From positions 1-53,003 of IMG/VR virus record IMGVR_UViG_3300030101_003060: a stretch of 53,003 nucleotides of DNA; one strand, written 5' to 3'. Of this stretch, positions 1-52,371 are shown piece by piece; the stretch's first letter is position 1; every line of letters starts with the position of its first letter. The position numbers and the translations under genes were made by a program. Below the pieces are notes generated by a model. The model made no database searches. It was given only the letters and a program-made list of their open reading frames with translations, and was not told the origin of the DNA. The DNA comes from a virus. Taxonomy: Duplodnaviria; Caudoviricetes.

Positions 1-530
1 ATCTCTTCTGTCTCTTCAACCTTTGAAGGAACAGGATACATTGCAGACATTGAACCACACTTCTCAGGCTTGATGCCTGAGATAATGAACTCACGCTCTT
101 CCTTGTCCAACAAAGGAAAAGCCTCTTGAACAAGAGAGCCTTCAATGTACCGCTGCAATTCTTTCTCTGTCACATGGATAACCACATACACTTGCTGTTC
201 ATCAGCAGTCATGGGTACAGTCTTACCCAGAATGACAACAGACTCTCTCGGAAACCGCAGGATGTGCATGTTGCCACCCGTAAGTCCCCACAGTGCAGTA
301 CCAATACAGTAATGATTCTCTGAAAGATACCGATCAATCTCGCAATGAATTGCCGCGTCCTCCTCACAAAAGAACGCATCTCTTCCGAGAACTTCACCCG
401 TTATCTTGGACACACCATACTCATCTTCAGGAGCGAGAAACCAATATACTCCATCGTCACATTTCACTCTGCGTGAGTATCCACCACTAGAGTAGATCAA
501 CTTAATACTTACATTTTTACCTGATTTCAT
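1..530 (-). CDS. hypothetical protein (~179 aa), wraps across the window ends; acidic C-terminal tail ...VEETEEIPF
   Basis: Not in the ORF track. The frame is open from ATG at 530 (RBS AGAAAGGAAAGCA) to position 1: MKSGKNVSIK...VQEAFPLLDKEEREFIISG...VEETEE. It closes as IPF-TGA (52999-52990) if the ends are joined at the shared ATCT. Confidence 0.75.
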   Translation of the reverse strand, partial: MKSGKNVSIKLIYSSGGYSRRVKCDDGVYWFLAPEDEYGVSKITGEVLGRDAFFCEEDAAIHCEIDRYLSENHYCIGTALWGLTGGNMHILRFPRESVVILGKTVPMTADEQQVYVVIHVTEKELQRYIEGSLVQEAFPLLDKEEREFIISGIKPEKCGSMSAMYPVPSKVEETEE

Positions 531-552
531 TGCTTTCCTTTCTAAGCAAAGT

Positions 553-598
553 CCACCCCCGCCGCCGGGGGCCGTCTGCCCCGGCGGCGTAGGGGTGG
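553..598 (-). promoter_or_regulatory. GC-rich intergenic hairpin H1 before an RBS
   Basis: CCACCCC-TA-CGCCGCCGGGG...CCCCGGCGGCG-GGGGTGG, followed by TTTGCTTAGAAAGGAAAGCAATG. Confidence 0.7.
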
Positions 599-608
599 TA
601 ATCATCGC

Positions 609-914
609 TCATTCTCCTTTGCACTTGACATCAGCAGGCAAGTACAAGTCCTGCCCACACTTACACACAGTACTGTTCTCATAGGTGTGATCATTCACCT
701 TATCACACCGACCACATGTAATGATCAAGTCATCCATTGCCACATAGAACAGGCGCTCCGCCCATTCTTCAAGGTCACGTTCCGCGTGGGGATCACTGTA
801 TGTAATCGTGTGGAGATAATCATAAATCTCCTGAGCAAGACTACTCTCAAGCTCACCAATACACTGAGTCTGAATCGTGCAACCGTTGAACATGACTTCA
901 TAAGTGTTATTCAT
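609..914 (-). CDS. hypothetical protein with C-terminal Zn-ribbon-like CxxC...CxCG
   Basis: Start reassigned to MNNTYEV (914), which has RBS AGAAAGGAAG. The track's N-terminal extension is the hairpin H2. Motifs CGRC and CKCG. Confidence 0.7.
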   Translation of the reverse strand: MNNTYEVMFNGCTIQTQCIGELESSLAQEIYDYLHTITYSDPHAERDLEEWAERLFYVAMDDLIITCGRCDKVNDHTYENSTVCKCGQDLYLPADVKCKGE

Positions 915-935
915 TTGCTTCCTTTCTAAATGCAA

Positions 936-986
936 ATGCCCGGCTCGGCGGCCGGAGGCTTTGCGTGGCCGCCGAAGACGGGGCAT
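936..986 (-). promoter_or_regulatory. GC-rich intergenic hairpin H2 before an RBS
   Basis: ATGCCC..TCGGCGGCC-loop-GGCCGCCGA..GGGCAT, followed by TTTGCATTTAGAAAGGAAGCAAATG. Confidence 0.7.
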
Positions 987-1049
987 ATAACCTATGTGTC
1001 TTATGTCGGTTCATTACCAGATCCACCTAGAGACACAACAGTACCTAGA

Positions 1050-1079
1050 AAAAAGGGGAGTACCCGAAGGTACCCCCCA
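1050..1079 (-). terminator. intrinsic terminator
   Basis: GGGGGGTACC-TTCG-GGTACTCCCC-TTTTTT immediately after the stop at 1084. Confidence 0.85.
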
Positions 1080-1083
1080 CACA

Positions 1084-1338
1084 TCAGATGAGACCTTCAA
1101 TAGGGGTCTCAACAGACTTAGGCTTGGAAGGGGACTTGGGCTTGTCCCCAGTCCACTTGCACAGCGTGAACACACCCTTGGGATACTCGGACATCTCCCA
1201 GTCCGAGGGAGAACCATCCTCATTGAGGAGCATGATAATGGGACGATTCGTGACCGTCCTACCATCAGCAAACTTACGGGTGGGCTTAGCCGGGGCAACA
1301 ACCAGAACCATCTTCTCGCAAAAGTCATCCATGTTCAT
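1084..1338 (-). CDS. hypothetical protein
   Basis: ORF MNMDDFCEK... with GGAG RBS, followed by a terminator. Confidence 0.7.
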   Translation of the reverse strand: MNMDDFCEKMVLVVAPAKPTRKFADGRTVTNRPIIMLLNEDGSPSDWEMSEYPKGVFTLCKWTGDKPKSPSKPKSVETPIEGLI

Positions 1339-1370
1339 GACGAACTCCAATAAGAGATAAACCACACCCA

Positions 1371-1417
1371 CTCACCGTGAGCGGCTGCGGCCGATAGGCA
1401 GCCGCTCAGACGGAGAG
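1371..1417 (-). promoter_or_regulatory. GC-rich intergenic hairpin H3
   Basis: Perfect 11-bp stem TGAGCGGCTGC/GCAGCCGCTCA plus an outer stem, followed by TTTATCTCTT and an RBS. Confidence 0.7.
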
Positions 1418-1541
1418 AACCAATTAGACTAATACACCTACAGAGATAGACATACCCGTGGATAGATAGGGGGTAGGGTGGCCCCTAGGTGGCTGATCTG
1501 GTAGTAGGAGAAAGACCCCTGCCCTATCAAAATTCCTTGGC

Positions 1542-1785
1542 TGGTACGTTTGGTACAGGTCTGGTACGCCGCAAATCGGCCTTCTTGCCCCCTATACCGG
1601 CGTTTTGTACCGCACGTACCACATGTGCCATACCGCACGCAATTACTACCTACCCTTTATACCCCACTAGATCTCTCTAAGTATGGTACATATGGTACAA
1701 AGTGGTGTAAAGTGTTGTGTGTAAAGAGGTTAGGGGTGTACCACACCCACCCACTGGCATGGTACACCCCTGGTACGTCTGGTAC
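1542..1785. repeat. iteron cluster (TGGTAC), putative replication origin
   Basis: TGGTAC at 1542, 1551, 1562, 1684, 1693, 1760, 1771 and 1780; inverted GTACCA at 1616 and 1738. 11-bp inverted repeat GGGGTGTACCA/TGGTACACCCC. Lies directly 3' of the helicase gene. Confidence 0.75.
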
Positions 1786-1789
1786 GCAC

Positions 1790-3178
1790 CTAGCCCTTAA
1801 GGCTCAAACCCCGCAACCCGCGTTTGCCTCCCCCGCCAATCCGGGTCCTCCGCAGGTCCCAAGTCGTTTCTTGCACCAACTTGTAGACCAACTGGTTCTG
1901 GCTAAGTGGGGGGACACGGAGGCCCTTGCTCCATTCTTTCCAATGATAGAACAAGACCTCGGAACTGACGAATCCAGCGTCCTTAACTTCAAACCGAGAA
2001 GCCAGAAACTCGTCAATCGGGTTGTTGACGGTGTGGTATTCCTCGATCAAGACGTTGGAGTTTTCTGGCATCGGGAACTTCTTCTTTGGGTCCTTCTCTT
2101 CTTCAAGAGTCTTGGCCCCCTGCCAAGCCCAATACGCAATACCGGGCAACTCTTCCAACAACTGCTCTGCAAGTCGATAGTTCTCTCGACCCACAAAGCT
2201 CACCGTAAAGGGTAGAAGTACCATCTTCCCTGACAGCCCAAGCCCCTTGTTGGGAAGCCGGGGGATTTCATTGGACTGCATGACTGGGACGGCTTCCACG
2301 ACCACGTTCCTAAGTGGCTGCTCGAACTTCCGGTTGATGGAGATGGGGTCTTTCCCCACAATCGACTTGATGACTCGACATGCGGCTTCTCCCTCACGAT
2401 TTGAAATTTCCGATACTTCATTAATTGCCATCACCTTTGCCTGCTCAATGCCCCAAAGCCCGAACTGACCAGCGATATCCTCCAGACAAGTACCCATATA
2501 GCCCTCACCAAGGAGAGCCTTCAACACGGACATGATAGTGCCCTTGCCGCCACGAATCTTACCGTACATCAAAAACCACTTTGCGTAGTCCCGATGAGGC
2601 AATAGGCAATACCCAAACATTCGCTGGAGTAGTTTGACCCAATCAGAATCTCCCCCGCTCCACTCCTTCAAACAACGATGCCAGATTGGGCATGTCGCTG
2701 AAGGGTCAAAGCTCACGGGAAGAACATGAGGATCGAAGAAGGTTTCATCTCGCTTGTACTTCATTCCCGTATTGGCATCCATCACCAGATCTTGGAATGA
2801 AATAAGGCTTCGGCATTCCTTGGTCTGGGGAGCCGTCAGCCACACGGGACTCTTTTCATGGGGCAATGTCTGCAAAGCCTGTAAGGCTCTCAGGACCCCT
2901 CTCACCTTCTCGATGGTGGGACCATACCTGACAGACCTCTGGCCGTTCTGGGTCGCTTGCTGGAACGATACGTTCTCCAAAGCAACCCACAAAGCACTTT
3001 CAACCCACTCAATATCGCGGGTTTGCCACTTTTCTCCATACCACTCGTAAAAATTTCCTCTCCAATACCATAATCCGTTTCGATTATTAGGAGTGGAAAA
3101 CCTTGTGTTCAGCAGGTATCGTGCAACCTGCATAGGTTCGGGGGACACCAAGGTGGGTGTTTGTGTCCGGTTAGTCAT
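1790..3178 (-). CDS. P4/D5-family SF3 helicase (primase-helicase C-terminal type)
   Basis: Walker A YGKIRGGKGT, Walker B-like INEVSE, motif C MQSNEIP; CPIWHRCL..W and LQRMFGYCL are typical of the D5 family; C-terminal winged-helix-like end. Confidence 0.9.
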   Translation of the reverse strand: MTNRTQTPTLVSPEPMQVARYLLNTRFSTPNNRNGLWYWRGNFYEWYGEKWQTRDIEWVESALWVALENVSFQQATQNGQRSVRYGPTIEKVRGVLRALQALQTLPHEKSPVWLTAPQTKECRSLISFQDLVMDANTGMKYKRDETFFDPHVLPVSFDPSATCPIWHRCLKEWSGGDSDWVKLLQRMFGYCLLPHRDYAKWFLMYGKIRGGKGTIMSVLKALLGEGYMGTCLEDIAGQFGLWGIEQAKVMAINEVSEISNREGEAACRVIKSIVGKDPISINRKFEQPLRNVVVEAVPVMQSNEIPRLPNKGLGLSGKMVLLPFTVSFVGRENYRLAEQLLEELPGIAYWAWQGAKTLEEEKDPKKKFPMPENSNVLIEEYHTVNNPIDEFLASRFEVKDAGFVSSEVLFYHWKEWSKGLRVPPLSQNQLVYKLVQETTWDLRRTRIGGGGKRGLRGLSLKG

Positions 3179-3230
3179 ACCTTAAATCTCCAAAGTAAAC
3201 AGGGTAAATACCAAACAGGGAATCCTTTCA

Positions 3231-4541
3231 ATGGCAAAGAAACGCCAAGAAGAAAATGAACGGAAGACGGAAGAAGAAAACGCCGCAGGACCTCCAAAGC
3301 AGGAAGCGATTACCCCTGAAGGTACCAGCCCCAATACCAGAAATCCCTTGGCGGATTATGCCGCCTTTATGCGGATGATGGGGCAACAAAACGCCAACAC
3401 CCGTCGATATGAGAGTGTACTCGAAGCGACTCGACGCGCCAACCAAATGATCAATCTTCCACGAGATCCGGTCAAAACAAAAAGAATTGATGATCGTCGT
3501 CGTGCCATGAATGTTTCAGAACATCATGGCAGAAGCCAGTTTATGAAAGATCGGGATGAACGAGTCCGTGAACAAATTTTCATGGACAATCTCGACAAAA
3601 TGGTTGAGAGGAATTGGAGGCGAAGCCAAAGAGATTCCGATGAATCTCTGGACGATCTGAGCCATGAAGAAGTTACGGCAATGATGGAGAGAGCAAAAGC
3701 AAGAGATGCTCAGATGACAGAGGAAGGTCGGGTAATTCGAGGAACACTCCCCGAACACTCTCCCGAGGAAACCGGACCTGAGATGACTCATCCGCCTCAT
3801 TACTCTCCTCCTCCAGTAATGGATCATCCTCCTTACTACGCTCCTCCGACAAACGAAATTCCTCCCGGCATGGAGGCAAACCCTCTTGAACAACTTCATG
3901 GACCCCCAGAAGAAGCACCGCCTTTTACTCTTTACCCTTACCCATCATTTGAAGATTCAACTGTCTTTGACGACACGGACTCTCCTCCCGTGGGCACAGA
4001 GTATGACACCACCCCTGAACCAATGTATGGGTATATGAATCCAAATGTCCATCAACCCCCTCTTGATGCGTCATTTGCTCCTCCTCCGTTCAACCCCATG
4101 GCGGACTTTTATGGTATGAGCAATACCATTGGAGGAATGGCTCAACAAGGACTTGCTGAAGCAGAACAGTTTGCCGGAAGACTTGCAGGACAACAAACAC
4201 ATGGGCAGGGATATCCGCAGATGGCGGCTGATTGGATGGCCCAAAACAACCCCATGCACAACCTCAAGCTCCAAAGTGACATACTGAAACTAAGAGCAAA
4301 GAACCTTAAGGAAATTCACGACGAGGCGGCGCACACAGGTCCAAATGTCATGTACCGGCATTGGCGGGACAATGTTTACGATCCCCGAACCGGAACTCCT
4401 CAAAGAGGTTTTGCTCGTCCGATGACTCATCCGCCTGCTCCTCCGGTACCTACATACGCCCCTCCCACGAATGAAATTCCTCCGGGAATGACTGCACCAG
4501 AAGTTTATCGAAGGCTTCACCCACCAATCCACACTCGATAA
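3231..4541 (+). CDS. proline-rich, probably disordered hypothetical protein with an internal repeat
   Basis: 436-aa ORF; MTHPP...YAPPTNEIPPGM occurs twice. Confidence 0.8.
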   Translation: MAKKRQEENERKTEEENAAGPPKQEAITPEGTSPNTRNPLADYAAFMRMMGQQNANTRRYESVLEATRRANQMINLPRDPVKTKRIDDRRRAMNVSEHHGRSQFMKDRDERVREQIFMDNLDKMVERNWRRSQRDSDESLDDLSHEEVTAMMERAKARDAQMTEEGRVIRGTLPEHSPEETGPEMTHPPHYSPPPVMDHPPYYAPPTNEIPPGMEANPLEQLHGPPEEAPPFTLYPYPSFEDSTVFDDTDSPPVGTEYDTTPEPMYGYMNPNVHQPPLDASFAPPPFNPMADFYGMSNTIGGMAQQGLAEAEQFAGRLAGQQTHGQGYPQMAADWMAQNNPMHNLKLQSDILKLRAKNLKEIHDEAAHTGPNVMYRHWRDNVYDPRTGTPQRGFARPMTHPPAPPVPTYAPPTNEIPPGMTAPEVYRRLHPPIHTR

Positions 4542-4554
4542 GTAGGAGGTTGCA

Positions 4555-6279
4555 ATGGCAAAAAGTCCCCGTCGAAAATTGCAGATAGGCCCCATTAAAA
4601 GAGCTTCTACTTCCGGTCTTTTCGGAGGGGACATGGAGCGTCTTGGTCTGGGGATGCCCGAGCTTGATCCTTTGGAAAGACTTAAGGCTGTCTTGGCGAA
4701 AACAAGCCCTAAAGGCCAAGTCACGGGTTTTGCGTCAGGCATTGAAGTTGAAGAAGCCATTGAGCATTGGCTTAAGGGTCAACCCCGTGACGTTCAAACT
4801 CAAGTAAGACGTTTTCTTCGACAGCAAGAAATTGCCAATCGACAACAAACAGAACTCACCAAGGCTTTTTCTGAAAGCGTAAAGCGTAAGGGGGGGACTA
4901 AAACCCAAGCAGGGCTTCTTGACGTTGATTCTGGGTTTGATTCAAGAGAGGCTGAAATTCGTCGTGCCATGCAGGAGTTTAATCTCCGAGAAGACGACGT
5001 TGCAAAAATGACGCAAGATCATGTTGATGATCTTATGAAGACTCGTCGTAGCCCAGCAGTTGCAAGGGCTATGGCAGATGAGATTTCAGAGCAGTACAAA
5101 GAACAAAGGAAGAGGGATGCAAAAGGTCTAGGAGGTCCAAGCCCTACCGAAGGTAGCGTACAAACCCCAGACGACCTTATGTTTGATGTCCGTAGGCCAG
5201 AATCTAAAGCCGCAAGAGAAGCCGCTTTAGGTAGGGGTCTTACTGATAGAGAACTTGCTCAAAAGTTAAGGGCCAACAACGCTTTTGTGATTAAGAGCCA
5301 CGGCCAAGAATTTCAGTTTAGCCCCACTAAAGCAGGCAAGTGGCGAATTACCCGCAACCGACTCGTCAATGTAGGCAAGGGAAAGTTTAGTCTTGAGCCT
5401 TCAAGTTGGACACAGGGAAGTGTTGAGCAATTTATTAAGGCTCTCCCATGGGGTAAGGCGGATAAAGACAAAGTAGAAGCGGTCAAGAACCATATTAGGT
5501 CAAAACTTCTTTCTCCTAACCCTAAAGGCCGACCTGCTACTGGACCCCAATTTGGTTTTGAAATCAAGAACTCCACTTTGTTGGGGGGTAAAGACCCACT
5601 TAAAAAGAATTTGGGTTTTGCTACTCTTGACGAAAAAACGAAAGCCAAGAAAAAAGCGGGGGTGGATAAGAAGATTCCGGGACGGCCTGTTCGCAGAGCA
5701 ATGACAAACAAGGTCATTAAAACTTTCCACGAAGCGCCTCACACAGATGGGACTATGAGGACATTCCTTCATCACCCCGCAGTAAATGACCTTAAGGGGA
5801 ATAGAACATATTTCCGAACAGACGGAAGCCTTACTCCAGCAGGCATGAAGAAGTACAAGGATCTTTTCTTCGTTTCTGTTATGGATCCCGCAAGACTGGC
5901 TCAATCCAAAGCCTTCCACAAGAAACAAAAGGCTAAAGCCATTGCAGATGTAGACAAGGTTGAAGTTGTTACGATGCAGGACGAGCCTAAGACTCGAAAA
6001 GCAAGCATGAGGGAAATCAATAAGGCTGCGGAACTTGCCAAAACCCCTCCGTCCCCACTTCCAATAGAACACCCTCTTAGGCGTACAGGTCCGGAAAAAG
6101 AAGTTCGACGTGCAAGGCACATGCTTAAGACTGAGCCTCGGAAAGTTTTGAATCGCCCAGAAGTTCGTAGCTTTATTCAGAAGGCTCTTCGCAGGGGAGG
6201 ACCGATGGCCCTTATCGCTCTTGCTTTGCTTACGGGCGGAGGTATGATGTTTGCAGGATCACAAAATGAAGCAGCCTGA
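4555..6279 (+). CDS. basic hypothetical protein with C-terminal hydrophobic helix
   Basis: 574-aa ORF, RBS AGGAGG, C-terminus RRGGPMALIALALLTGGGMMFAG. Confidence 0.85.
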   Translation: MAKSPRRKLQIGPIKRASTSGLFGGDMERLGLGMPELDPLERLKAVLAKTSPKGQVTGFASGIEVEEAIEHWLKGQPRDVQTQVRRFLRQQEIANRQQTELTKAFSESVKRKGGTKTQAGLLDVDSGFDSREAEIRRAMQEFNLREDDVAKMTQDHVDDLMKTRRSPAVARAMADEISEQYKEQRKRDAKGLGGPSPTEGSVQTPDDLMFDVRRPESKAAREAALGRGLTDRELAQKLRANNAFVIKSHGQEFQFSPTKAGKWRITRNRLVNVGKGKFSLEPSSWTQGSVEQFIKALPWGKADKDKVEAVKNHIRSKLLSPNPKGRPATGPQFGFEIKNSTLLGGKDPLKKNLGFATLDEKTKAKKKAGVDKKIPGRPVRRAMTNKVIKTFHEAPHTDGTMRTFLHHPAVNDLKGNRTYFRTDGSLTPAGMKKYKDLFFVSVMDPARLAQSKAFHKKQKAKAIADVDKVEVVTMQDEPKTRKASMREINKAAELAKTPPSPLPIEHPLRRTGPEKEVRRARHMLKTEPRKVLNRPEVRSFIQKALRRGGPMALIALALLTGGGMMFAGSQNEAA

Positions 6280-6739
6280 GTGGGAACACCAAGGGGACGC
6301 AGGTAAGGTCCTTTCATTCTTTGATGCCGATGCAGCAGCAAAAGCACTGGAACTCAACTCCTTCAGTATTGAGGAGGAAGTTTCTACTCTCATTCAGCAC
6401 ATGCGTGATCCAGATGCTAAGATTGCATTGCGTGCCCACAACCAACTCCGTCGAGTCCTTAATGAAGTTGCAAAGGCCAATGGGTTGATTACAACCCAGG
6501 AGTTTACACAGACAAATGAACAAGGAAACCAGAGTGTCAGAATCACCCGCAACCAAAAGCTACTCTCGAACCTCAAAGCCACGACCCACCGATCAAACCT
6601 CCCCGAAAACCCCGACTTCGCTGCTCAGTATCTCCCCCCAGCAGGAAGAGACACTGACCTCAATGAAGAAAATGGGTCCGATGGGACTGGCGAGATCGGC
6701 GGGTCAGGTACTATTCGACTTGGCGATAATGGACATTGA
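6266..6739 (+). CDS. hypothetical protein, terminase small subunit candidate
   Basis: Helical ORF upstream of TerL; start MKQPEW with AGGA RBS. Function assigned by position only. Confidence 0.5.
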   Translation: MKQPEWEHQGDAGKVLSFFDADAAAKALELNSFSIEEEVSTLIQHMRDPDAKIALRAHNQLRRVLNEVAKANGLITTQEFTQTNEQGNQSVRITRNQKLLSNLKATTHRSNLPENPDFAAQYLPPAGRDTDLNEENGSDGTGEIGGSGTIRLGDNGH

Positions 6740-6968
6740 TGGTTTGGTGGGATCTCGGGAACGATTTGGTTCTCTCATCTATTCTTACTACATCCAAAAG
6801 GATGAACCCACCAAGAACTTCTTCCGCAACTGGAAGCACACTTATCCGCATTCCATGGTGAAGAACAACCCCATCTCCTACGTCGCAACTCTTTCCCGTA
6901 TTGCGACTGTCGAACTACTCGCCAAGGGGGAATTGGATGCGAATACGTCGAATACCGACGAGAAGTGA
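6663..6968 (+). CDS. hypothetical protein (start uncertain)
   Basis: Fills the gap between 6739 and TerL; part of track ORF 6516-6968. Confidence 0.5.
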   Translation: MKKMGPMGLARSAGQVLFDLAIMDIDGLVGSRERFGSLIYSYYIQKDEPTKNFFRNWKHTYPHSMVKNNPISYVATLSRIATVELLAKGELDANTSNTDEK

Positions 6969-8874
6969 GGGGAATGAACTTTTCCCCCTTCCCCCTGATT
7001 ATATGGAGTTGTCGAATGACGGCCAGCGTGAAGCTCGCGTAAATGCGTGCAGACAATGGCTCGTACCTGTAACAACTCCACAAGACAAGACTGACCGATT
7101 TATTGGGTCAATGTTGTTTTTTGATCATTGGTATTTGTGTCCTGACGAAGAAGACGATTTCAACCCCATGTTCTATGACGAGGATCCTGTCCCCCTACCA
7201 GACGGACACCTTGGCATCTACAAGGAATGGGCAACCAACAGAGCATCCATTGCCATTGCACCCCGAGGATTCGCCAAGTCCAACTGCATCCGCAAGTCGA
7301 TCCTTCTCCAAATGCTGACAAGGCCCGGCTACTCCTTTATTTACGCAACTTCCACTAACGATAACGCCAAGCAGACCGGCCAGATTATTAAGACCCAGTT
7401 CCAACAGAACTCGCGTATCTTTGATGACTGGTCTCCTGAGTTTGACGATAACCGGATTGTGCCTCGTCGAGGTGAAGCATCGTTTGGTATCGAGTTGATG
7501 TACTTGAAGAATGGATCTTGGTTCCGGGCGATCTCGTCAGAGTCACGTCAGCGTGGTGGTCGCCCTCGATGCTATGTTCTTGATGACCCTGAATACGATC
7601 CCCGTGCCAGCACTTCGATGTCAGTGCTTCGATCCTACATGGACACCTTGCTGTTCAAGGTTGTCATGCCGATGATTACTCGACCCGGCACCAGCCTTAG
7701 ATGGTTGGCTACCTTTGTGAGTCGCCGCCACTATGCGTGGTACGCAATGGAAACGCAGGAGACAGAAAAGGGAACTCGTTCAAGGGATTCTCGATTTGAT
7801 CACTGGTCACGAATGATCATCAAGGCTGCATATAAGGATACCAGCGACAAGTTGATTTCCTGTTGGCCTGAGATGTGGCCGGTAGATAGAGAACAAAAAG
7901 AAAACGATCCTCGCCTCAAGGAACGTATCAGCCTTGAGGAGATCCGTGAACAAATTGGATCCGCCAACTTCGCATCAGAGTACATGGCAGATCCCGGTGC
8001 CAGCGAAGATGCGTTCTTCCCTGAACTGGACGAGTCTCATTCTTGGTGGTTGACCTCTGTTGATGCCAGTTACGGTCTGAATCCAAGAGACTCTTCCACC
8101 CTAATGAACTGGAAAGGTCTGGACGGTAACACCAAGAAGATGCCGATGTCTGACTTCTTAAAGGAGTCGTGGCTCTTTATGACGGTTGATACGTCATGGA
8201 CCTCCACGGGGGATTCCGACTTCAAGGTTTGCACCGTTATGGCGGCCACCCCCGACAACGAACTCTTCGTGATTGATACGTGGGGGGGACAGTGTGATGA
8301 AAACACCCTCATCAAACACATCTTTGAGATAGCCGACAAGTGGAAAGTTCCTTCCATCCACCCCGAAGTGGTTCGTCAGAGCATTGCCCTGTACCAAAAC
8401 TTGGACAGCCTCGTAAAGCAGAGGGCTACTGAGATGTTCGACGTGGCCCATATGCCCAAGATTGTCCCTCTCAAGGTTGGGATGGTGGCAAAATCCACCC
8501 GCATTGCCGCTCTCCAGTTCCGGTTTGAGAACGGACTCATCAAGCTGCCTTTGGAACGAAGAATGGACCGCCATTGGTCGATGTTGTTTGACCAGATTGA
8601 GCAGTTCAACCCTGAAGTAGCAGACGGTGGACTAGCCAAGGACGACCATATCGACACTGTCTCCATGTCAGGCAACATCCTGAAGGGGCGTATTTCACGC
8701 CCAACCTACGATGTGGAAGACGATAGGACCCCCGAAGAACATATTATAGAGGGGGATTTTACGGATGAAGCCGGGATCCCTTGGGCATACAGGCTTCAAA
8801 AGCTGGACCCCTCCCTCTTGGATGCTATTGGAGAAGAACGTGGAAACGAACCTGATAAACCCTCAAGAGTCTGA
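6937..8874 (+). CDS. terL: terminase large subunit
   Basis: Walker A APRGFAKSN, RGGRP followed by Walker B YVLDDPE, RNase H-like nuclease residues TVDTSW...DSDF...DDHIDTVS. Confidence 0.93.
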   Translation: MRIRRIPTRSEGNELFPLPPDYMELSNDGQREARVNACRQWLVPVTTPQDKTDRFIGSMLFFDHWYLCPDEEDDFNPMFYDEDPVPLPDGHLGIYKEWATNRASIAIAPRGFAKSNCIRKSILLQMLTRPGYSFIYATSTNDNAKQTGQIIKTQFQQNSRIFDDWSPEFDDNRIVPRRGEASFGIELMYLKNGSWFRAISSESRQRGGRPRCYVLDDPEYDPRASTSMSVLRSYMDTLLFKVVMPMITRPGTSLRWLATFVSRRHYAWYAMETQETEKGTRSRDSRFDHWSRMIIKAAYKDTSDKLISCWPEMWPVDREQKENDPRLKERISLEEIREQIGSANFASEYMADPGASEDAFFPELDESHSWWLTSVDASYGLNPRDSSTLMNWKGLDGNTKKMPMSDFLKESWLFMTVDTSWTSTGDSDFKVCTVMAATPDNELFVIDTWGGQCDENTLIKHIFEIADKWKVPSIHPEVVRQSIALYQNLDSLVKQRATEMFDVAHMPKIVPLKVGMVAKSTRIAALQFRFENGLIKLPLERRMDRHWSMLFDQIEQFNPEVADGGLAKDDHIDTVSMSGNILKGRISRPTYDVEDDRTPEEHIIEGDFTDEAGIPWAYRLQKLDPSLLDAIGEERGNEPDKPSRV

Positions 8875-9121: not shown

Positions 9122-11072
9122 AATCTGTCAGGTCATTCGTGACCACGCCGAAAAGGAAATACAACGTCTTTCCTACCGGCGAATCACTTGGCTCTTGACG
9201 TATTACTATCTCAATGGGATGCGTCGTTTTGACGTGTTTGATCCCAATACCGGCAACTTGTCTCCCCACTATCTTGATGAAGATGGCAACATGGAGTTTC
9301 AGAGTCAGGAAATGCTGTCGGCTATCGACCGTGCATCTGCCCGGCTCTCCTCTATGGACCTTCGTCCCAAGGTTTTAAGGACTGGAACCAGCCTCCCAAT
9401 GATCCGCCAGCGGGCTACGGCCCAACTTCTGGCGGATTCTTTGGTGGCGGATGATCAAATTGCAGAAGTCTCCACCAAGTTTGCCCACCTGTTTACGTCT
9501 TTGGGGTCATGTGGTATTCAGGGGCATATTGTAGATCACCCCACAATCGGACTCACCGCAGACCTTGAGGTTATCCATCCCAAAGAAATCCTTCCTTTCC
9601 CCTCCCTCAACACGGACTACACCAAACAAGCCGGGCTTATTCGCCAGCGTGTTGTCCCGCTTGAAACTCTGATCGAGAAATACGGAGACAAGATCAAGCG
9701 TCACTTGGACGAGATGGAGTTTTATGAGATTGAGATTGGGGATCCACTTGAAGACGTTGACAACAACGAGTCATTGGAAAGCCAAGTCAAAAACCCATTT
9801 AACGATAAGGGGTATAAAGGCGGTGGTGCAGATGCGATGAAGGTAGTGAGGATTCGGGAGCTTTGGATTGATGGCCCCCGAGGAACATGTGATCGTTATA
9901 TCATTTGTTCTGGTGACTACCTTATTGAAGATCAAGATCTCTCTCAGACTCAAACATATTGTCCGATTGGATTCTCTCGTTTCATTGAAAACGGATCTTT
10001 CCATGGGGTCGGACTCTTTGACATGCTGTTTTCCATCAATCGTGAGATGGAGAAAATGTTGAAGTCTCTCTTCAATAATGTGAGAGATATGGATAGGTAC
10101 GGGGTTGTCGTTATGCCGCAAGGATCGTTTAATGAACGATCAGTCCTGCGGGAGGTTGGTAATGGCTTGCGAATGATTTCGTACCAGCCAGACCCCCTCA
10201 ACGAAAAGTTCAGTCCCTTTACGATTGCCCCCCACAATGCGGGAGATATTCCCGGAAAGACTGCGGCTTATGCCAAGCAGTTGATGCAGGGAATCAATCC
10301 GGTCCAAGACCTTATTCAAGAGAAGGGTCGAATCGACTCGGCAACTGGCCTCCAATTCCTAGATGAACAGATCAACCGGGCCATGACAAACCCAACAATG
10401 GGGGTTGTCCAAGCCTTTGGCAAGATGTACAGGAGTATGGTGTCTAATGCCACAAGAGAACTTGTATTGAATCCTCGGCCTATCCCCGTCAAGGCATTTG
10501 ACTTGAATTTGGCAGGGGCAGTTATTGACTTCAATTCAAGCGAGATTTCATTCCAGAACAATCCAATCCCCAATAGTTCCCATCTTACTTATACTGTTCG
10601 TCAGGTCCATCCTCGTTCTGAGGTGGTTCGTAAGCAGGAAGCCATCCAGATGCTACAGTCTGGATTGATGGATCCAGATGGATTTAAGCTCTTTGCTTTG
10701 AAGGAAGGACTTGACTTTGCTATGTGGATTGACGAAGATCAAGCCGCATACGAATTGGTTGTTCAAAATATCCTTACCCTCTTTGGCGATGGAACAGATC
10801 CCGGACAAGTAGTCATTACTCCCCACACTTCACGACCAGAACTTCAACTCCGAGTCCTTTCATCCTTTATGTCTGGACCCATGATGAATCAGGCGGATCC
10901 TGAAGTAGTTGACCAATTCAAAATTTATCGAGAATCACTCATCCAATTCATGGGCCAATCTCTTCCTGAGATGGTTCCAAACCCCGACTCCGCAGCACTA
11001 TTTGCGGAACAACAACCCCAAGCGGGACCTAAGCCCGGTCCCGGCATGATGCAAGGAATGATGAATGTCTGA
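9081..11072 (+). CDS. portal protein
   Basis: 663 aa, between TerL and scaffold/capsid; GVGLFDML..INRE..K and DSATG motifs; Q/P-rich tail. Confidence 0.82.
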   Translation: MSHQKFKLPKKKVEICQVIRDHAEKEIQRLSYRRITWLLTYYYLNGMRRFDVFDPNTGNLSPHYLDEDGNMEFQSQEMLSAIDRASARLSSMDLRPKVLRTGTSLPMIRQRATAQLLADSLVADDQIAEVSTKFAHLFTSLGSCGIQGHIVDHPTIGLTADLEVIHPKEILPFPSLNTDYTKQAGLIRQRVVPLETLIEKYGDKIKRHLDEMEFYEIEIGDPLEDVDNNESLESQVKNPFNDKGYKGGGADAMKVVRIRELWIDGPRGTCDRYIICSGDYLIEDQDLSQTQTYCPIGFSRFIENGSFHGVGLFDMLFSINREMEKMLKSLFNNVRDMDRYGVVVMPQGSFNERSVLREVGNGLRMISYQPDPLNEKFSPFTIAPHNAGDIPGKTAAYAKQLMQGINPVQDLIQEKGRIDSATGLQFLDEQINRAMTNPTMGVVQAFGKMYRSMVSNATRELVLNPRPIPVKAFDLNLAGAVIDFNSSEISFQNNPIPNSSHLTYTVRQVHPRSEVVRKQEAIQMLQSGLMDPDGFKLFALKEGLDFAMWIDEDQAAYELVVQNILTLFGDGTDPGQVVITPHTSRPELQLRVLSSFMSGPMMNQADPEVVDQFKIYRESLIQFMGQSLPEMVPNPDSAALFAEQQPQAGPKPGPGMMQGMMNV

Positions 11073-37802: not shown

Positions 37803-37845
37803 AAAAAGACCCCTACCCCCAGGACCGTTGAAAGGGGGTAGGGGC
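37803..37845. terminator. terminator at the convergence of the two arms
   Basis: CCCCTACCCCC/GGGGGTAGGGG stem with a T-tract on the - strand. Confidence 0.75.
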
Positions 37846-37857
37846 AAGAAAGGAAAA

Positions 37858-39490: not shown

Positions 39491-39501
39491 GCCGCACCTC
39501 C

Positions 39502-39716
39502 TAAAAAGCCCCGCTCTCCTTGCAGGGAAAACGGGGCCGAGAGGAGAAAAGATGAAAGGGGTGAGGCCCGTAGCAACGGAAACCTCACCCCGGAAGTGGG
39601 GGGACTAGTTCAGTACCTAGAGTATCCAATGTCCCCGTAGGACACTCCAAGGGAATTGTAAAAATACCCCCTCCCCGACTTCAAGTTGGACCAAGAGGTC
39701 GTAATGGGGAGGGGGC
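39502..39716 (-). ncRNA. structured intergenic region with four tandem hairpins (ncRNA or attenuator candidate)
   Basis: Stems CCCCCTCCCC/GGGGAGGGGG, GGGGAC/GTCCCC, GGGGTGAGG/CCTCACCCC and GCCCCG/CGGGGC; three are followed by U-rich runs. Confidence 0.4.
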
Positions 39717-41135: not shown

Positions 41136-41495
41136 TCATGCAAGGCCAAACATATCGTTTCGATTAAGACCGGAACGAGGATCTATCATGCTTTCGGAAG
41201 TTGATACCTCATTGTCAAAGACAATTTCTTCTTCCGGCTCTGTCGCCCCGGCCACCGGACGGGGCGAAGAGGCGGTGAATAAACCTTTAATCGTCACGGT
41301 CTTTACGAATTCGATATCCAATGTTTTGAGGTACTCATCGAACTTTGCTGCGGAGATAGGGAATCCTTCCTGCTCCATAAACATGGCTCGAAGTTCTGCC
41401 TTGTTCTTGATGTCGGGGTTATTGCTGACACAGGTCTGTAGCTTGGGTCGGATTACGAGTTCCGCCACATCCTTGTCAAAGTTGTTGTCTGTCAT
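41136..41495 (-). CDS. hypothetical protein
   Basis: 119-aa ORF with GAGGA RBS. Confidence 0.7.
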   Translation of the reverse strand: MTDNNFDKDVAELVIRPKLQTCVSNNPDIKNKAELRAMFMEQEGFPISAAKFDEYLKTLDIEFVKTVTIKGLFTASSPRPVAGATEPEEEIVFDNEVSTSESMIDPRSGLNRNDMFGLA

Positions 41496-43958: not shown

Positions 43959-43991
43959 TGACCCCGGCCCGCGTAGCGGGGGCCGGGGTCA
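43959..43991 (-). promoter_or_regulatory. GC-rich intergenic hairpin H6
   Basis: TGACCCCGG-CC-CCCGC-TAC-GCGGG-CCGGGGTCA, followed by an RBS. Confidence 0.7.
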
Positions 43992-46566: not shown

Positions 46567-47074
46567 CATGGGTCAATGATCCATTTACGAGAAGTCTCGC
46601 CACCCATTCTCCGACTGCTCGCCGTGCTGTGGTGGTCGATGAAGGTAGGAGGATGAGAGGCACCTGCCTCTCGAAGAGTATCCTTTGAAAAGAATCTAAA
46701 GCTAGACCCGGATTCTCCACATATTTCGTGGGTCTTTGCAGATCTATGGGGCTTCCTTCCAGTAGGAGGAAGGGCTTCTGACATTCAGATTTCAGGCGGT
46801 CGATCTGAGATATGAATCGTCGGCAGCCATCTTTTCGCAGGCAGTATCCTGCCACTTCTCGTAGGGATCCCTTACGCTCCACGAGGACGTTGTCTTCGTA
46901 GCCAAGGAGGCAGTAGTCACCTGTCTTGAGGGGATGTGTCTCCGTCCGTATACGGACCCGTGTGGGCTTCCTGTGCCACGGCGGCTTTGCGTCATCCAAG
47001 AACGACAGCGTTTCGGGGAAGATCAGAGGCTTCTTTTCCCGTGAGTCTTGGAGGATGACGAACTCTTTCTTCAG
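46547..47074 (-). CDS. ERCC4/XPF-domain nuclease (probable CTG start)
   Basis: ILQDSREK, LKTGDY, VERKGS, LLLEG. Confidence 0.85.
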   Translation of the reverse strand: MKKEFVILQDSREKKPLIFPETLSFLDDAKPPWHRKPTRVRIRTETHPLKTGDYCLLGYEDNVLVERKGSLREVAGYCLRKDGCRRFISQIDRLKSECQKPFLLLEGSPIDLQRPTKYVENPGLALDSFQRILFERQVPLILLPSSTTTARRAVGEWVARLLVNGSLTHGMEDHD

Positions 47075-49218
47075 TCGAGAACCTCAAGGTCGTGCTTTAG
47101 GGTGACTTCTCTGCCGTAGTGCCATTGGAGATCGGCCCAATAGCCCTCATCTATAACCTCTTTTACTGCGGTGTCTACTGCATTTCTTGCAGATTCCTCC
47201 ATATTTTCTGGACAATCTATGTAGATAGCGTCGTAGATCTGCAAGAACATCAGGCATTTGGGGTCAAGATTACGCATAAGCCTGTGCTGGATGGCAAGAG
47301 TTAGGTTGCCTGCCGTGGTTTGGACAGGGAAGTTCACGATTTCTGAGCGTGACTTACCAATATCTCCGAAGAAGGTACGAGATTGTCCGGTCAAGGGTAG
47401 AAGAATCCGGTGTTGCACCTTGGCTTTGTGGAGTAGGGACCTCTGCCATTTGGTAAGGGTGGGCCGAACTGATGCCCTCAGTGCCACAACATCCTGATAG
47501 AACTCCAGGGGTAGGTCGATATCACCTGAGCTTTGGGCATATACCTGTTCCTTCATGGTATTGGCAGAGGAGAGGAATAGGTCAGCGAAGTTCATCATCT
47601 TGCCGACCTGCCTACGTTGGTGTTGGGAGTCTGGCAGTTCGTCGTAGTCCTCCCATAGTGTGCGTGCCCTCTCTGCATGGAGGTCCCGCCCTTCGTTGTA
47701 TGCAGAGATCATGGACTTTTCGCCTGACAGTAGAGCAGCAACCCTGAGTTCTGCTTGAGACAGGTCCATTGCAAGGATGGTTCCTCTTGAAAACCTAGAC
47801 CGTATGCACTTCTTGATTGGCTTTGGGAAGGTCTGTGCTGACGGTTGCTTGCATGTGATGCGGCCTTGGATGGTGCCGCCTGCCGAGCCAGTATCGTTCT
47901 TGATATGGCTGGGAGTTACATACCATGTGGGATAGGCGATGGAGTCTGCCAGTCTTGATGATCGTAGTGATCCGAAGCGAGCGTCTGCCTGCAACTTCTT
48001 GACGACCGGATCTTCCTTCATGTCGGCAGCATCCACTCGCTCTGCTGGCGTGTGGTAAAGCGTTATCTCTTCAGGACTTGCAGACGTTGCGTATGGACCA
48101 CACAAGTTCTTGTTGGTAGGGATAATGATGGAAGACATATCCTCTGGCTTGTTACGTCGGTGGTAAAGGAGAGGATAGCAGTAGGAGGAGATTAGTTTTA
48201 GTGCTTCGGAGTGAGTGTTGGCTAGTTCGAGCGCGTGTTGGTATCCGGCTGTGTCGTCTACCTGACTCAGTTCTTCCAGCAGGGTGGTCCTGTTCTTCTT
48301 GGTGAAGGACACCTTCTTGGTCTTGGGCGTGACATCCATACGATCAAGGATGTCGGGGTTGGATGTCTGTGCAATGAGGGTGATGACTTCATCGAGGAAC
48401 TCATCCTTGGAGGTAGCAGAGCCGGGTCCTTGGAGGATGAGGTCTTGATCTTTCGCCAACTCGATTGCTTCGCCTGAAGTCTTGGAGCATTGCTCGTGCA
48501 ACGATTGCAATCGTTTCGACGACATGGGCACACCATTCTCCGACATCATAATAGTGGCCCAGATGCTATCACTGTAGAAGCGGAGACAGTAGAAGCCATA
48601 GTTGTCGTCCTTGAACTTCTCGTTTAGAAGGCGACGTGACAGTTCTGCTATTGCAAGCAGGGTGTTGTGTGTGTCCTGAGCGTTGTAATCGTGGAGTTTC
48701 TCGTCGGTCGAACGTCGGAACCGTGTCGTCGCCAGTGTCTCTGAGTAGGCATGGGTGCCGAGGACTGGACCCAAGGCTTTGAGGCTACGCTCTTCCCGTA
48801 GTTCAGAGTGAAGGTAATTGAGGACTGAGAGATCGACAAGAGTTTTAGTGGGGGGAATATCAAACCCCACATACCGTAGGTATTGAAGGTCGAACTGTAG
48901 GTTCATGCCGAGGATTGTGTCGGCATGGTCAAGCCAGTCTTGCAGTTGTTGTCGTTGCTCAGGGATATGGAGTTGAAAAACAAAGGTTTCTCCTGGCTCC
49001 ATGTATGACAGTTGTTGGAAGTCTATGTTGACGGCGTGGATGTTGGGGACAGTAATTGCCACCGTCAAAACCATGTCGTCGTCTTTCACTCTGTCAATGT
49101 AGCTTGACTTCTGTGGGTGGAAAACGGTTTGCTTGGGAAGGAAAACGCCAAGATGATTTGTCTTGGCGGCACCGTAGGTTTCGATGTCAAGGCTGATGAT
49201 GTTGCTGTCATTCGTCAT
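47071..49218 (-). CDS. polA: family A DNA polymerase with 3'-5' exonuclease
   Basis: Exo motifs SLDIET, NLQFD, YNAQD; motif A MDLSQAELR; motif B RQVGKMMNF; motif C QIYDA. Confidence 0.92.
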   Translation of the reverse strand: MTNDSNIISLDIETYGAAKTNHLGVFLPKQTVFHPQKSSYIDRVKDDDMVLTVAITVPNIHAVNIDFQQLSYMEPGETFVFQLHIPEQRQQLQDWLDHADTILGMNLQFDLQYLRYVGFDIPPTKTLVDLSVLNYLHSELREERSLKALGPVLGTHAYSETLATTRFRRSTDEKLHDYNAQDTHNTLLAIAELSRRLLNEKFKDDNYGFYCLRFYSDSIWATIMMSENGVPMSSKRLQSLHEQCSKTSGEAIELAKDQDLILQGPGSATSKDEFLDEVITLIAQTSNPDILDRMDVTPKTKKVSFTKKNRTTLLEELSQVDDTAGYQHALELANTHSEALKLISSYCYPLLYHRRNKPEDMSSIIIPTNKNLCGPYATSASPEEITLYHTPAERVDAADMKEDPVVKKLQADARFGSLRSSRLADSIAYPTWYVTPSHIKNDTGSAGGTIQGRITCKQPSAQTFPKPIKKCIRSRFSRGTILAMDLSQAELRVAALLSGEKSMISAYNEGRDLHAERARTLWEDYDELPDSQHQRRQVGKMMNFADLFLSSANTMKEQVYAQSSGDIDLPLEFYQDVVALRASVRPTLTKWQRSLLHKAKVQHRILLPLTGQSRTFFGDIGKSRSEIVNFPVQTTAGNLTLAIQHRLMRNLDPKCLMFLQIYDAIYIDCPENMEESARNAVDTAVKEVIDEGYWADLQWHYGREVTLKHDLEVLD

Positions 49219-49531
49219 CTCCAAGGACTTTCCTTTCCTGATCCATGTCAACCTGATGATTGACTTCGTAGGCTTCGGCGGTGTCATGGATTTCTTCACG
49301 GATACCAGATTCATTTTCCATGATCATCTGTTCACCGTAAGTTTCAATCATGGCATTAAACTGTGAGGCGAGTTCGTCCTTCTTGACCTCTGCGCCTACA
49401 ACCTCAACATTACCATCCACGATCTGGAAATCAATACTTGCGTCCACATCTTCGTATTGAGATTCTATCTCTTCCCCGTCAACAAACATAGTGAAACCAA
49501 TTTTGATTGTCTTGGTGATGTAGTCCATCAC
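49208..49531 (-). CDS. acidic hypothetical protein
   Basis: Coupled ORF of 107 aa, D/E-rich. Confidence 0.7.
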   Translation of the reverse strand: MMDYITKTIKIGFTMFVDGEEIESQYEDVDASIDFQIVDGNVEVVGAEVKKDELASQFNAMIETYGEQMIMENESGIREEIHDTAEAYEVNHQVDMDQERKVLGDDE

Positions 49532-50419: not shown

Positions 50420-50667
50420 TCTCCTTGTAGGTTTTCAGGAGGTTCTATTTTATTCATAAGTGGGTAAAGAGCAGGAGTTACCATAAGGCCAAATGGTATG
50501 TAGGCATTGCCTCCTGTTTCTTCTACGTCCACTAAGATGCAAAGGACTTGGAGATCCCGGCCCTTTGAATCTTTGCATGACACCAAAGAAACATCTTTGT
50601 TCTTTGCTGCACGCATGAATGTTTCAAAGTTTACTTGGCATTCCTTGCGGATCATTGTGTCTCCCAT
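50401..50667 (-). CDS. hypothetical protein
   Basis: AGAAAGGAAAG RBS downstream of hairpin H5. Confidence 0.7.
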   Translation of the reverse strand: MGDTMIRKECQVNFETFMRAAKNKDVSLVSCKDSKGRDLQVLCILVDVEETGGNAYIPFGLMVTPALYPLMNKIEPPENLQGEWMWEL

Positions 50668-50713
50668 AAGACTTTCCTTTCTTGTGGGAATCTAGTTCAG
50701 ACAAAAAAGAGAT

Positions 50714-50770
50714 TGTTGGGCGGTTGGCACGCCGCCCGTAGGGCGTGGCGTGCCACCGCAAAAATCAACA
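50714..50770 (-). promoter_or_regulatory. GC-rich leader hairpin H5
   Basis: GCGGT-GGCACGC-CA-CGCCC-TAC-GGGCG-GCGTGCC-A-ACCGC, then ATCTCTTTTTT. Confidence 0.7.
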
Positions 50771-50773
50771 GCA

Positions 50774-50802
50774 ATAATAAGTCGGCAAAACTTCCTGGTC
50801 AT
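50774..50802 (-). promoter_or_regulatory. sigma70-like promoter candidate
   Basis: ATGACC-N17-TATTAT located between a terminator and H5. Confidence 0.45.
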
Positions 50803-50816: not shown

Positions 50817-50857
50817 AAAAAAAGGGCAGGTAATCTTGCGAACAAGACTACCCACCC
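50817..50857 (-). terminator. intrinsic terminator
   Basis: GGGTGGGTAGTCTTG-TTCG-CAAGATTACCTGCCC-TTTTTTT. Confidence 0.88.
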
Positions 50858-50881
50858 TATATATGGAGGCATGTATAACAC

Positions 50882-51587: not shown

Positions 51588-51649
51588 GCTGTTTGCATCC
51601 CTGCAAAAAGAGCAAGGGGACCGAAGTCCCCCATGCCCTATTGGAGTTG

Positions 51650-52267
51650 TCAGATAATGGAATCGCCATCCTCTTCACCGATGGGAGTAACAGCATCCTC
51701 CCGACGAGTGGCACGCTTGCGAACACCTTCCAAGTGGATCTTGAGGTCAAGATCACTGGCCCCAAAGCATTCACGATTATCATTCAGAGACAGAGTAAAA
51801 GTCTCTTCATCTTCAAAGTCAAGGAGAGGGAACTTAAAAGCAACACGATCCACCTTGTCATTGCCCTTGACAATTCCAGTGCGAGGACAAGTAACACACA
51901 AGCCAATAAAACCTCTGCACTCATCAGCCAGAGTGTCACGATCAAACCCAAGCCACTTGGGAATATCCTCAACACCAAAGGCATCCAAGAGAGAGATCAA
52001 CTGGATCTGACCAAGAGCAAAAGCCTTACGCTTCTTCTTCCCATCACGATCAATGTATGCAGTGGGATTAAGTTTAGCACCCATAGTGTATGTCCAAAGA
52101 ATGGACTCATGGATTTCCTCACTGTTGCTAACATCATCAGGATGCTTGAAGATGAAAGTAACAGACTTGTTGTTCTTCTTACTAGCAACAACATTAGACA
52201 GACAAACAACCTCAGTGACAGGCACAATCAAGTCACTACCGCACATATCCAAGAAGTCAAGATTCAT
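51650..52267 (-). CDS. hypothetical protein
   Basis: Start MNLDFL with AGAAAGGAAAA RBS, downstream of H4. Confidence 0.75.
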   Translation of the reverse strand: MNLDFLDMCGSDLIVPVTEVVCLSNVVASKKNNKSVTFIFKHPDDVSNSEEIHESILWTYTMGAKLNPTAYIDRDGKKKRKAFALGQIQLISLLDAFGVEDIPKWLGFDRDTLADECRGFIGLCVTCPRTGIVKGNDKVDRVAFKFPLLDFEDEETFTLSLNDNRECFGASDLDLKIHLEGVRKRATRREDAVTPIGEEDGDSII

Positions 52268-52312
52268 TTGCGTTTTCCTTTCTTTCAACGCAATTTAAAA
52301 AAAGAGATAAAG

Positions 52313-52371
52313 CGACGACCACCGTAGTGGCCGCTGCCTCCGGCGGGGGCAGCGGTCCGGAGGTGGGCGGC
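52313..52371 (-). promoter_or_regulatory. GC-rich intergenic hairpin H4
   Basis: CCGCTGCC/GGCAGCGG core with CCACC/GGTGG outer stem, then TTTATCTCTTTTTTT. Confidence 0.65.

Follow-up and report, generated by a model that had tools for sequence, protein, structure and literature searches.

The IMG/VR virus record IMGVR_UViG_3300030101_003060, from an uncultured marine phage and taken whole (53,003 bp, hereafter the window), is organized in two arms: a plus-strand arm with the terminase and virion genes, and a minus-strand arm that runs from a primase/helicase gene across the record junction and on past a family A DNA polymerase gene. The minus arm carries six GC-rich imperfect hairpins, H1 to H6, each located shortly upstream of an early gene (Table 1). 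To judge from a 5.4-kb TARA scaffold (L041, 99.96% identity), which passes unbroken from window position 1168 through position 1 to 52999 and on to 48811, the record is circular or circularly permuted; its ends share a 4-nt overlap (AGAT, 1-4 and 53000-53003). Since L041 crosses the junction, the gene that runs off the record at position 3 terminates at a TGA (52990-52992), just ahead of the terminator at 52958-52983. No cultured-phage relative of window positions 1-8000 was found at the DNA level among 50,697 records, and the DNA polymerase aligns with those of Vibrio, Bacillus and Roseobacter phages at only 22-30% identity, along between a third and less than half of its length.

The six hairpins, first described in an initial annotation of the sequence, are all present on the minus strand at, or a few bases from, the places it proposed. 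In sliding 60-nt folds of both strands (mean -12.3, standard deviation about 4.6 kcal/mol), the minus-strand folds of H1 to H6 reach -41.6, -30.1, -29.2, -33.7, -33.3 and -31.5 kcal/mol, and rank within the ten or so most stable minus-strand places of the window. Compared with 200 dinucleotide shuffles each, the z-scores are -5.6, -4.2, -4.3, -5.3, -4.7 and -3.4; the native fold was matched by no shuffle for H1 to H5 and by one of 200 for H6 (core fold energies in this test were -29.1 for H4, -32.3 for H5 and -33.8 kcal/mol for H6). The stems are 14-22 bp long, with 14-21 predicted pairs in the folds of the shuffle test, and have 65-90% G+C and small bulges. Over the whole window, on both strands, no match to Rfam 15 reaches the gathering score. 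All six lie in gaps of the sense strand, in leaders or between cistrons, and are presumably co-transcribed with the genes around them. Their description as intergenic needs a correction at H1 and H2, which fall within frames that are open from an upstream ATG (open reading frames, ORFs, 3..605 and 609..986); these frames (605-530 and 986-914, minus strand) continue into the downstream gene.

The distance from the end of the stem to the ATG is 22, 21, 32, 21, 52 and 42 nt for H1 to H6, in line with the 20-50 nt first estimated, and the strong ribosome-binding sites (RBSs) noted behind the hairpins are also found: an exact AGAAAGGAA at H1, H2, H5 and H6, and AGGAAGGAA at H4. The window contains five exact copies of AGAAAGGAA, and all four on the minus strand are the RBSs behind these hairpins. 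The fifth, on the plus strand (37809-37855), directly follows a convergent-arm hairpin (37809-37843) and has no ORF start after it. A small stem that ends at the start codon repeatedly holds the RBS in its loop, in the window (528-552, 912-935, 52265-52296, 50665-50690) and in relatives (L042:1606-1640, L011:13380-13412, L025:1455-1500). The stem sequences differ (UUGC/GCAA, UUGCGUU/AACGCAA, UGCGUUU/AACGCA, CCAUGG/CCAUGG, UCCCA/UGGGA), and the folds range from -2.4 to -14 kcal/mol, with z-scores down to -4.0.

The sequences that flank the hairpins are partly shared. H1 and H2 have the common 3′ flank originally quoted for them. A shared ATCTCTT tail exists as well, but its assignment has to be exchanged: ATCTCTT follows H3, H5 and H6, and the ATCTC-A-TT variant follows H4, the tail of which is ATCTCATT. 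The motif is common in the window (24 copies against 9.8 expected); even so, three minus-strand copies within about 12 nt behind hairpins are far more than its genome frequency predicts. The apical stem and TAC triloop attributed to H5 and H6 are misplaced: a UAC triloop on a short apical stem occurs in H4 and H5, and the UACG of H6 is the loop of an alternative 3′ sub-hairpin.

Relatives of the window were collected via the primase, the polymerase and two small early proteins, giving about ten viral contigs and 20 metagenome loci (designated by L and a number). Overlapping loci were stitched, genes were called by a simple ORF-plus-RBS heuristic, and proteins were grouped by BLASTP; the heuristic calls erred near H1-H3, and the starts used for hairpin distances were checked by eye. 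The proteins of these relatives are 35-89% identical to those of the window, and GC-rich hairpins recur at fixed syntenic positions: P0 (H3), P1 directly before a conserved gene of about 205 codons (H6), P2 (H5) and P3 (H4), the last of these behind a conserved 44-aa gene. What the analysis shows is thus that the hairpins exist, that relatives keep them in place with covarying stems, and that they are distinct from T-tailed terminators.

Table 1. Hairpins, associated signals and principal genes of the window.
Feature	Position	Strand	Description
H1	553-598	-	19-bp GC hairpin with 2-nt 5′ bulge, between the 101-aa gene and the ~180-aa gene; P1-type
H2	936-986	-	Bulged GC hairpin, 21 nt upstream of the 101-aa ORFan gene; preceded by a UUCG/T-run terminator (at ~70 nt) and a CCGACAT motif (at 19 nt)
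H3 (P0)	1371-1417	-	Closes the 450 nt of non-coding sequence that follow the primase gene; 32 nt upstream of the first small gene
H4 (P3)	43959-43991	-	26 nt after the stop of the conserved 44-aa gene, 21 nt before a window-specific 99-aa gene
H5 (P2)	50720-50759 (50714-50770 with weak outer stem)	-	Upstream of the replication operon (conserved 88-aa gene, UDG-like gene, DNA polymerase)
H6 (P1)	52310-52373	-	Composite hairpin; starts at the stop codon of the 107-aa gene, followed by UUUAUCUCUUUUUUU; 42 nt before the 205-aa gene
RBS of H1, AGAAAGGAA	535-543	-	
RBS of H2, AGAAAGGAA	919-927	-	
RBS of H4, AGGAAGGAA	43942-43950	-	
RBS of H5, AGAAAGGAA	50674-50682	-	
RBS of H6, AGAAAGGAA	52275-52283	-	
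CCGAC-N7-TG motif	50772-50785	-	AT-rich N7 fits a -10 hexamer; kept in 8 distinct relatives
Terminator	1055-1078	-	Canonical, UUCG-type loop and T-run
Terminator ahead of H5	50823-50858	-	Canonical, UUCG-type loop and T-run
Terminator	51615-51632	-	Canonical, UUCG-type loop and T-run
Terminator	52958-52983	-	Canonical, UUCG-type loop and T-run
205-aa gene	51650-52267	-	OB fold in the model
Minus arm	From primase/helicase gene (1790-3178) across the junction, via family A DNA polymerase (47071-49314), to 37858	-	
Plus arm	3231-37726	+	Terminase and virion genes

The H5 element was traced through the window plus 28 loci. Of these, 20 show a terminator and then a hairpin within 345 nt upstream of the 88-aa gene; at seven further loci there is an intervening gene and the hairpin lies farther upstream, L056 has no hairpin at P2, and L053 is too short to tell. 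The hairpin always follows the T-run terminator, by about 50-100 nt, and the CCGAC-N7-TG motif by 8-18 nt, and a promoter scan near H5 returns ATGACC-17-TATTAT (50802-50774). Because a conserved -10-like motif stands 8-18 nt upstream, after a terminator, the hairpin is predicted to begin within about the first dozen bases of the transcript. As a general promoter of this phage, CCGAC-N7-TG was rejected: it is not enriched in the window, where the searched pattern was one base too long.

Thirteen distinct versions of the H5 hairpin share an invariant 3′-arm core and a nearly invariant 5′ arm, with variable outer stems and loops. The core ...GGGCGGCG is unchanged in 12 of 12 aligned sequences (13 invariant columns), and the loops differ in length and sequence (CAAG, CGTTG, CGTCCG, UAC). 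With 12 of the sequences a covariance model was built; its 24 matches, at 38-51 bits, fall in 24 different sources, i.e., in one place per source. In the alignment fitted to this model (13 distinct sequences) 71% of the cells are paired. Shuffles yield 64.3 ± 1.9 (none of 500 attains the native value), and sliding the partners gives no more than 52%; double changes occur at 7 of 15 pairs. Folded singly, the same sequences form 13-21 pairs each: the figure of 71% is held down by bulges that sit in different registers, on which the model forces a single one. For the same reason RNAalifold recovers only four pairs from a MAFFT alignment, and the covariance-model alignment was used instead. Between the window and L042, an A-to-G change converts a U-A into a U-G pair, a single case in which pairing is kept only in the sense RNA.

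The H4 element has in relatives a 22-nt core that is letter-identical in nine viral contigs (six distinct contexts), and the flanks are similar only from about -15 to +12. In the alignment of six sequences 97.4% of the cells are paired, and sliding the partners gives no more than 64%. Nine of the 12 main-helix pairs are invariant, and two pairs overall show a double change; the bulges switch sides between genomes. In L021, the polymerase of which is 46% identical, a hairpin at the matching distance behind the polymerase gene resembles this element at its apex but not in its outer stem, and ATCTCAT stands between it and its RBS. Conservation of sequence to this degree exceeds the needs of a purely structural element. 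Directly 5′ of the H4-type hairpin, L061, L062 and L067 carry three tandem 8-nt units (ACGAAACT; one copy is ACAAAACT in L067), and the window, L018 and L069 a single degenerate copy. Two further ideas about H4 were discarded. A search for a host with the 22-nt core in 185,579 species genomes, in which it was the only sequence searched for REP-like host copies, gave one chance match, in a G+C-rich contig of a metagenome-assembled genome unrelated to the phage. Occlusion of the RBS by the 5′ flank appears in the folds of the window, L013 and L021, and by eye not in L018, L019, L061 or L064.

The invariant cores may indicate that H4 and H5, at least, are bound by a phage or host protein that recognizes their sequence. 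The hairpin would then be a translational operator, the RNA target of an antitermination or processing factor, or the palindromic DNA site of a repressor at the transcription start. The exact cores of both elements amid changing outer stems or dissimilar flanks, the apex and tail retained in L021, and the overlap of the H5 element with its predicted transcript start all fit such a role. However, the loops vary freely, the bulges change sides, and complementarity of the outer stems is kept, though a DNA operator would not need it; no candidate binding protein was identified, and the P0 and P1 hairpins have no conserved sequence. The invariant cores keep a sequence-specific binder a candidate, though an unlikely one.

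At P0 and P1, sequence is replaced outright between relatives and a hairpin is retained. The hairpins at P0 in relatives are unrelated to H3 (L004 11780-11814, L005 11724-11770, L011 11781-11842), and those at P1 (L004, L005, L009, L011, L018, L019, L042) differ so widely, often with T-rich tails, that a MAFFT alignment is only loose. H1, the second P1-type hairpin of the window, can be compared with the P1 hairpin before the SSB-like gene (SSB, single-stranded-DNA-binding protein) of L004 (14085-14136): 15 of 15 pairs are kept, with three double changes and no single-sided one. It has no counterpart at the homologous junction of L042, and H1 together with its RBS looks like an insertion at a gene border. 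An ATG at 605 with its own AAGGAG corresponds to the place at which the next gene of L042 begins, and L042 has no hairpin there. For H2 no counterpart was found in the relatives examined. For the product of the 205-aa gene behind H6, the structural model (pLDDT 81.7) shows an OB fold and a C-terminal tail that is acidic and disordered. Among known structures PrgE matches it best, at a Z of 8.2 that the tool itself rates as borderline, followed by the OB domains of RPA, Teb1 and Cdc13; there is no Pfam or PHROG match, and the protein is probably a phage SSB.

The six hairpins do not form the single dispersed family first proposed. At E ≤ 1 the H5 model matches H5 alone in the window, not H1-H4 or H6, and the set comprises three or more distinct orthologous elements, together with others specific to a lineage, rather than one repeat family. 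Structural conservation and covariation in relatives, on which the initial annotation had made its reading depend, are both observed, as hairpins at the same positions and as compensatory changes.

The distinction from terminators was examined in eight contigs. Of the GC-rich hairpins found there, 37 distinct ones lack a T-tail; their medians are 16 bp, 74% G+C, four T among the 10 nt that follow and a distance of 40 nt to the next start. The corresponding medians for 18 T-tailed hairpins are 14 bp, 67% G+C, seven T and 113 nt. T-tailed hairpins end transcription units and leave room for a promoter, whereas the others lie directly before starts; behind H1, H2 and H4 the 21-22 nt to the start leave no such room. 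A T-run within 0-2 nt of the stem is absent at H1-H5 (2-5 T in the next 10 nt), and a terminator scan lists short sub-stems inside H2, H3 and H6 and nothing at H1, H4 or H5. The original contrast with the UUCG/poly-U terminators thus applies to the class and to H1-H5, but H6 is not clearly different from a terminator, because its stem runs into UUUAUCUCUUUUUUU and its sub-hairpin appears in the scan. The gap between the 170-aa and 149-aa genes (39494-39605, minus strand) contains two terminator-like hairpins in tandem, with the tails UUUCAUCUUUUCUCC and UUUUUAGGAGG, and the same pair occurs in L013; a pyrimidine-rich tail of the ATCTC type can follow terminator-like stems too.

The hairpins might all be partial intrinsic terminators (attenuators) that stop some polymerases between early genes and so set product ratios, with read-through feeding the next gene. 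Beyond H6 itself, the P1 tails of relatives are T-rich in L005 (TTCTTTTTTTT), L011 (TTTT) and L042 (T8 after 7 nt), and the ATCTCTT or TCATCTCAT type of motif also stands behind clear terminator-like hairpins (39560-39600, L023, L024). The PeSLs (promoter-early stem-loops) of T4-type phages are reported to terminate transcription (PMC2839356). Against this count the tails and scan results of H1-H5, the position of the H5 element just behind a promoter-like motif, its versions in L004, L011 and L009 without any T-rich tail at all, and the clean UUCG/T7 terminators already present at unit ends. Attenuation is unlikely to account for the set; for H6, an attenuator upstream of the SSB-like gene is the most fitting reading.

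These features are selected for structure, and the initial proposal of structure-encoded regulation is supported to the extent of a cis-regulatory role, since relatives keep the hairpins with compensatory changes and the class differs from terminators. The choices offered with it (RNase III processing sites, message stabilizers, protein-bound leaders, DNA borders) are not narrowed by the sequence alone. Our preference, held tentatively, is that the hairpins are cis-acting RNA elements in 5′ leaders and between cistrons that protect or define messenger RNA ends, comparable to the RNase III sites of T7 or to REP elements; both the action as RNA and the effect on the stability or processing of message ends are inferences. 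At H2 and H5, and probably H3, the stem would lie within about the first dozen bases of the transcript, after a terminator-plus-promoter junction, and a very stable stem in this place would cap the 5′ end. H1, H4 and H6 separate cistrons; here the upstream message would gain a protective 3′ hairpin, and the downstream one a short leader, if the RNA were cut within the stem or the A/U-rich linker; H6, with its U-rich tail, would probably also terminate part of the transcription before the SSB-like gene. End protection or definition is the simplest mechanism that covers both the unit-start and the between-cistron settings.

Cis-regulatory hairpins of phages are known as a kind, and the present case is a variant that comprises several elements, one of six being terminator-like. 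The early RNase III sites of T7 and the site in the lambda N leader are imperfect hairpins, the cutting of which leaves a stabilizing 3′ hairpin. Like the hairpins of the window, they lie in leaders or between early cistrons, just upstream of an RBS; they span about two helical turns, to which the window stems come close. In contrast, the window stems have 65-90% G+C and no central internal loop, cleavage is here only predicted, and the early arm is split by canonical terminators, whereas T7 produces one long early transcript. REP (repetitive extragenic palindromic) elements of enterobacteria are host palindromes with a consensus, present in hundreds of copies, that block 3′ exonucleases and stabilize the upstream cistron. 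They too are imperfect, G+C-rich and 35-50 nt long, in transcribed intergenic gaps; the window hairpins, unlike them, are phage-borne, few and different in sequence. The leaders of ompA and of the T7 late genes have 5′-terminal stabilizer hairpins, i.e., a stable stem at the transcript start, tens of bases before a strong RBS, which is the geometry predicted for H5 and H2; the window stems are much longer, with a conserved core, and only a -10-like motif serves to predict where their transcripts start. T4 gene 32 has a pseudoknot as its translational operator. H6 alone resembles it, as a structured element with a U-rich unstructured leader before the gene of an OB-fold protein with an acidic tail, although H6 is a hairpin; the SSB assignment goes back to a Z of 8.2.

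Several points weigh against end protection by RNA. Invariant cores such as those of H4 and H5 are not needed by a mere stabilizer. Stems made almost wholly of G-C pairs are cut poorly by the RNase III of E. coli. H6 and several P1 hairpins of relatives, with their T-rich tails, may be plain terminators. Two marine metatranscriptome runs hold 12-14% of the sampled words as exact contigs of 150-380 nt; the pieces listed fall mostly at 38.7-52.2 kb, none is shown to span H4, H5 or H6, and the contigs give no transcript starts or ends. Finally, the stems are nearly purely Watson-Crick and show no preference for the sense strand: among 16 leader-type hairpins, G-U pairs number 12 in sense and nine in antisense, the sense strand is more stable in eight and the antisense in seven (a comparison biased by the selection of hairpins on their sense-strand fold), and the plus strand folds more stably than the minus strand for all six hairpins of the window. 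This lack of strand asymmetry therefore leaves room for a role at the DNA level. On the other side, the stem length of about 14-22 bp is near the ~22 bp, or about two helical turns, that RNase III is reported to accommodate (PMC6212723).

One such DNA-level role is that of linkers for cassette exchange, in which hairpin-plus-RBS blocks serve as short homologies for swaps of ORFans, as proposed for PeSLs. The genes behind H1, H2, H3 and H4 are unique or have weak homologues in relatives, and the hairpin position persists; the H4-type hairpin lies between different neighbors in L018, L019, L013 and the window, and the P1-type hairpins H1 and H6 bracket a three-gene block that is replaced in L042 by 1.4 kb of other genes. 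The 3′ flanks common within the window (H1/H2; H3/H5/H6) and the missing sense-strand bias also speak for it. The PeSLs of T4-type phages are reported to have a strong sigma-70 promoter, conservation over about 100 bp and many copies per genome (PMC4122927, PMC2839356); they share with the window hairpins the G/C-run stem-loop followed by a Shine-Dalgarno sequence and ATG, the ORFan-rich early region, and flanked genes that differ between relatives. The common flanks of the window are far shorter, 11-25 nt, the best-conserved elements, such as that of H5, are single-copy per genome, and a promoter-like site occurs at one of the six hairpins (H5). The promoter scan found none at H1-H4 or H6, with totals no higher than in shuffles, a consensus scan being blind to non-canonical promoters. 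Moreover, gene gain and loss occur at gene borders anyway. An exchange role is possible but improbable.

Another DNA-level reading takes the hairpins as promoters of the N4 type, in which a hairpin of the template strand is used by a phage-borne RNA polymerase. The more stable plus-strand (template) folds, the short apical stems and 3-nt loops of H4 and H5, and the location of all six just upstream of early genes are compatible with it. Such promoters are unlikely in the extreme, because no polymerase gene was found among the proteins searched: 26 scanned against PHROGs and 25 against Pfam gave no RNA polymerase, and the 1314-aa and 1096-aa proteins have no PDB relatives, the former resembling clusters of "large polyvalent proteins". 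Furthermore, the stems of 14-22 bp exceed the 5-7 bp of N4, and in relatives the sense strand is equally often the more stable one.

End protection by RNA, with H6 probably also a partial terminator, continues to be the reading we prefer. A combination of levels is conceivable, if quite improbable: hairpin, pyrimidine-rich linker and genome-specific RBS in a small loop would make up a modular early-gene cassette. On RNA, a factor dedicated to this task, from phage or host, would read the conserved G+C apex of the H4 and H5 types and so set the timing of the replication genes; on DNA, the short homologies would permit swaps of ORFans. Such a cassette would be PeSL-like but of independent origin, in a podovirus-like lineage of the sea. 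Very little is known of how uncultured marine phages control their genes, and the hairpins are conserved, testable non-coding elements absent from Rfam, at which early transcripts probably start, stop or are processed. Conservation of the H4 and H5 types is high enough for their use as lineage markers and as bait for a factor that reads them. Should the hairpins prove to be strong stabilizers or insulators, expression design would also gain useful parts; should they be plain attenuators, the finding is an ordinary one.

Other features of the window were observed in passing. A metatranscriptome contig fuses 52960 directly to position 1, without the 39 nt (52961-52999) that contain the terminator hairpin. 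The missing segment is bordered by an 8-nt direct repeat, CCCATTCT, and is present in the DNA scaffold L041; its absence is either a natural variant or a skip of reverse transcriptase over the hairpin. A strong hairpin (9391-9450, -34 kcal/mol on either strand) lies within a 663-aa plus-strand gene. On the minus strand, a GC hairpin of -27 kcal/mol (41234-41275) in the coding region of a 119-aa gene also occurs in L018, L019 and L024, and may merely mirror a conserved Pro/Gly-rich peptide. Right behind the primase/helicase gene, the hexamer GTACCA occurs ten times within 244 nt (1542-1785; eight copies on the minus and two on the plus strand), out of 40 copies in the window against 16.3 expected. 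This cluster contains a hairpin of -35 kcal/mol (1734-1793), overlaps a promoter-like TTTACA-17-TACCAT and is also found behind the primase gene in L003/L004, L007, L010 and L021; by its sequence it looks like the iterons of an origin or an operator array.

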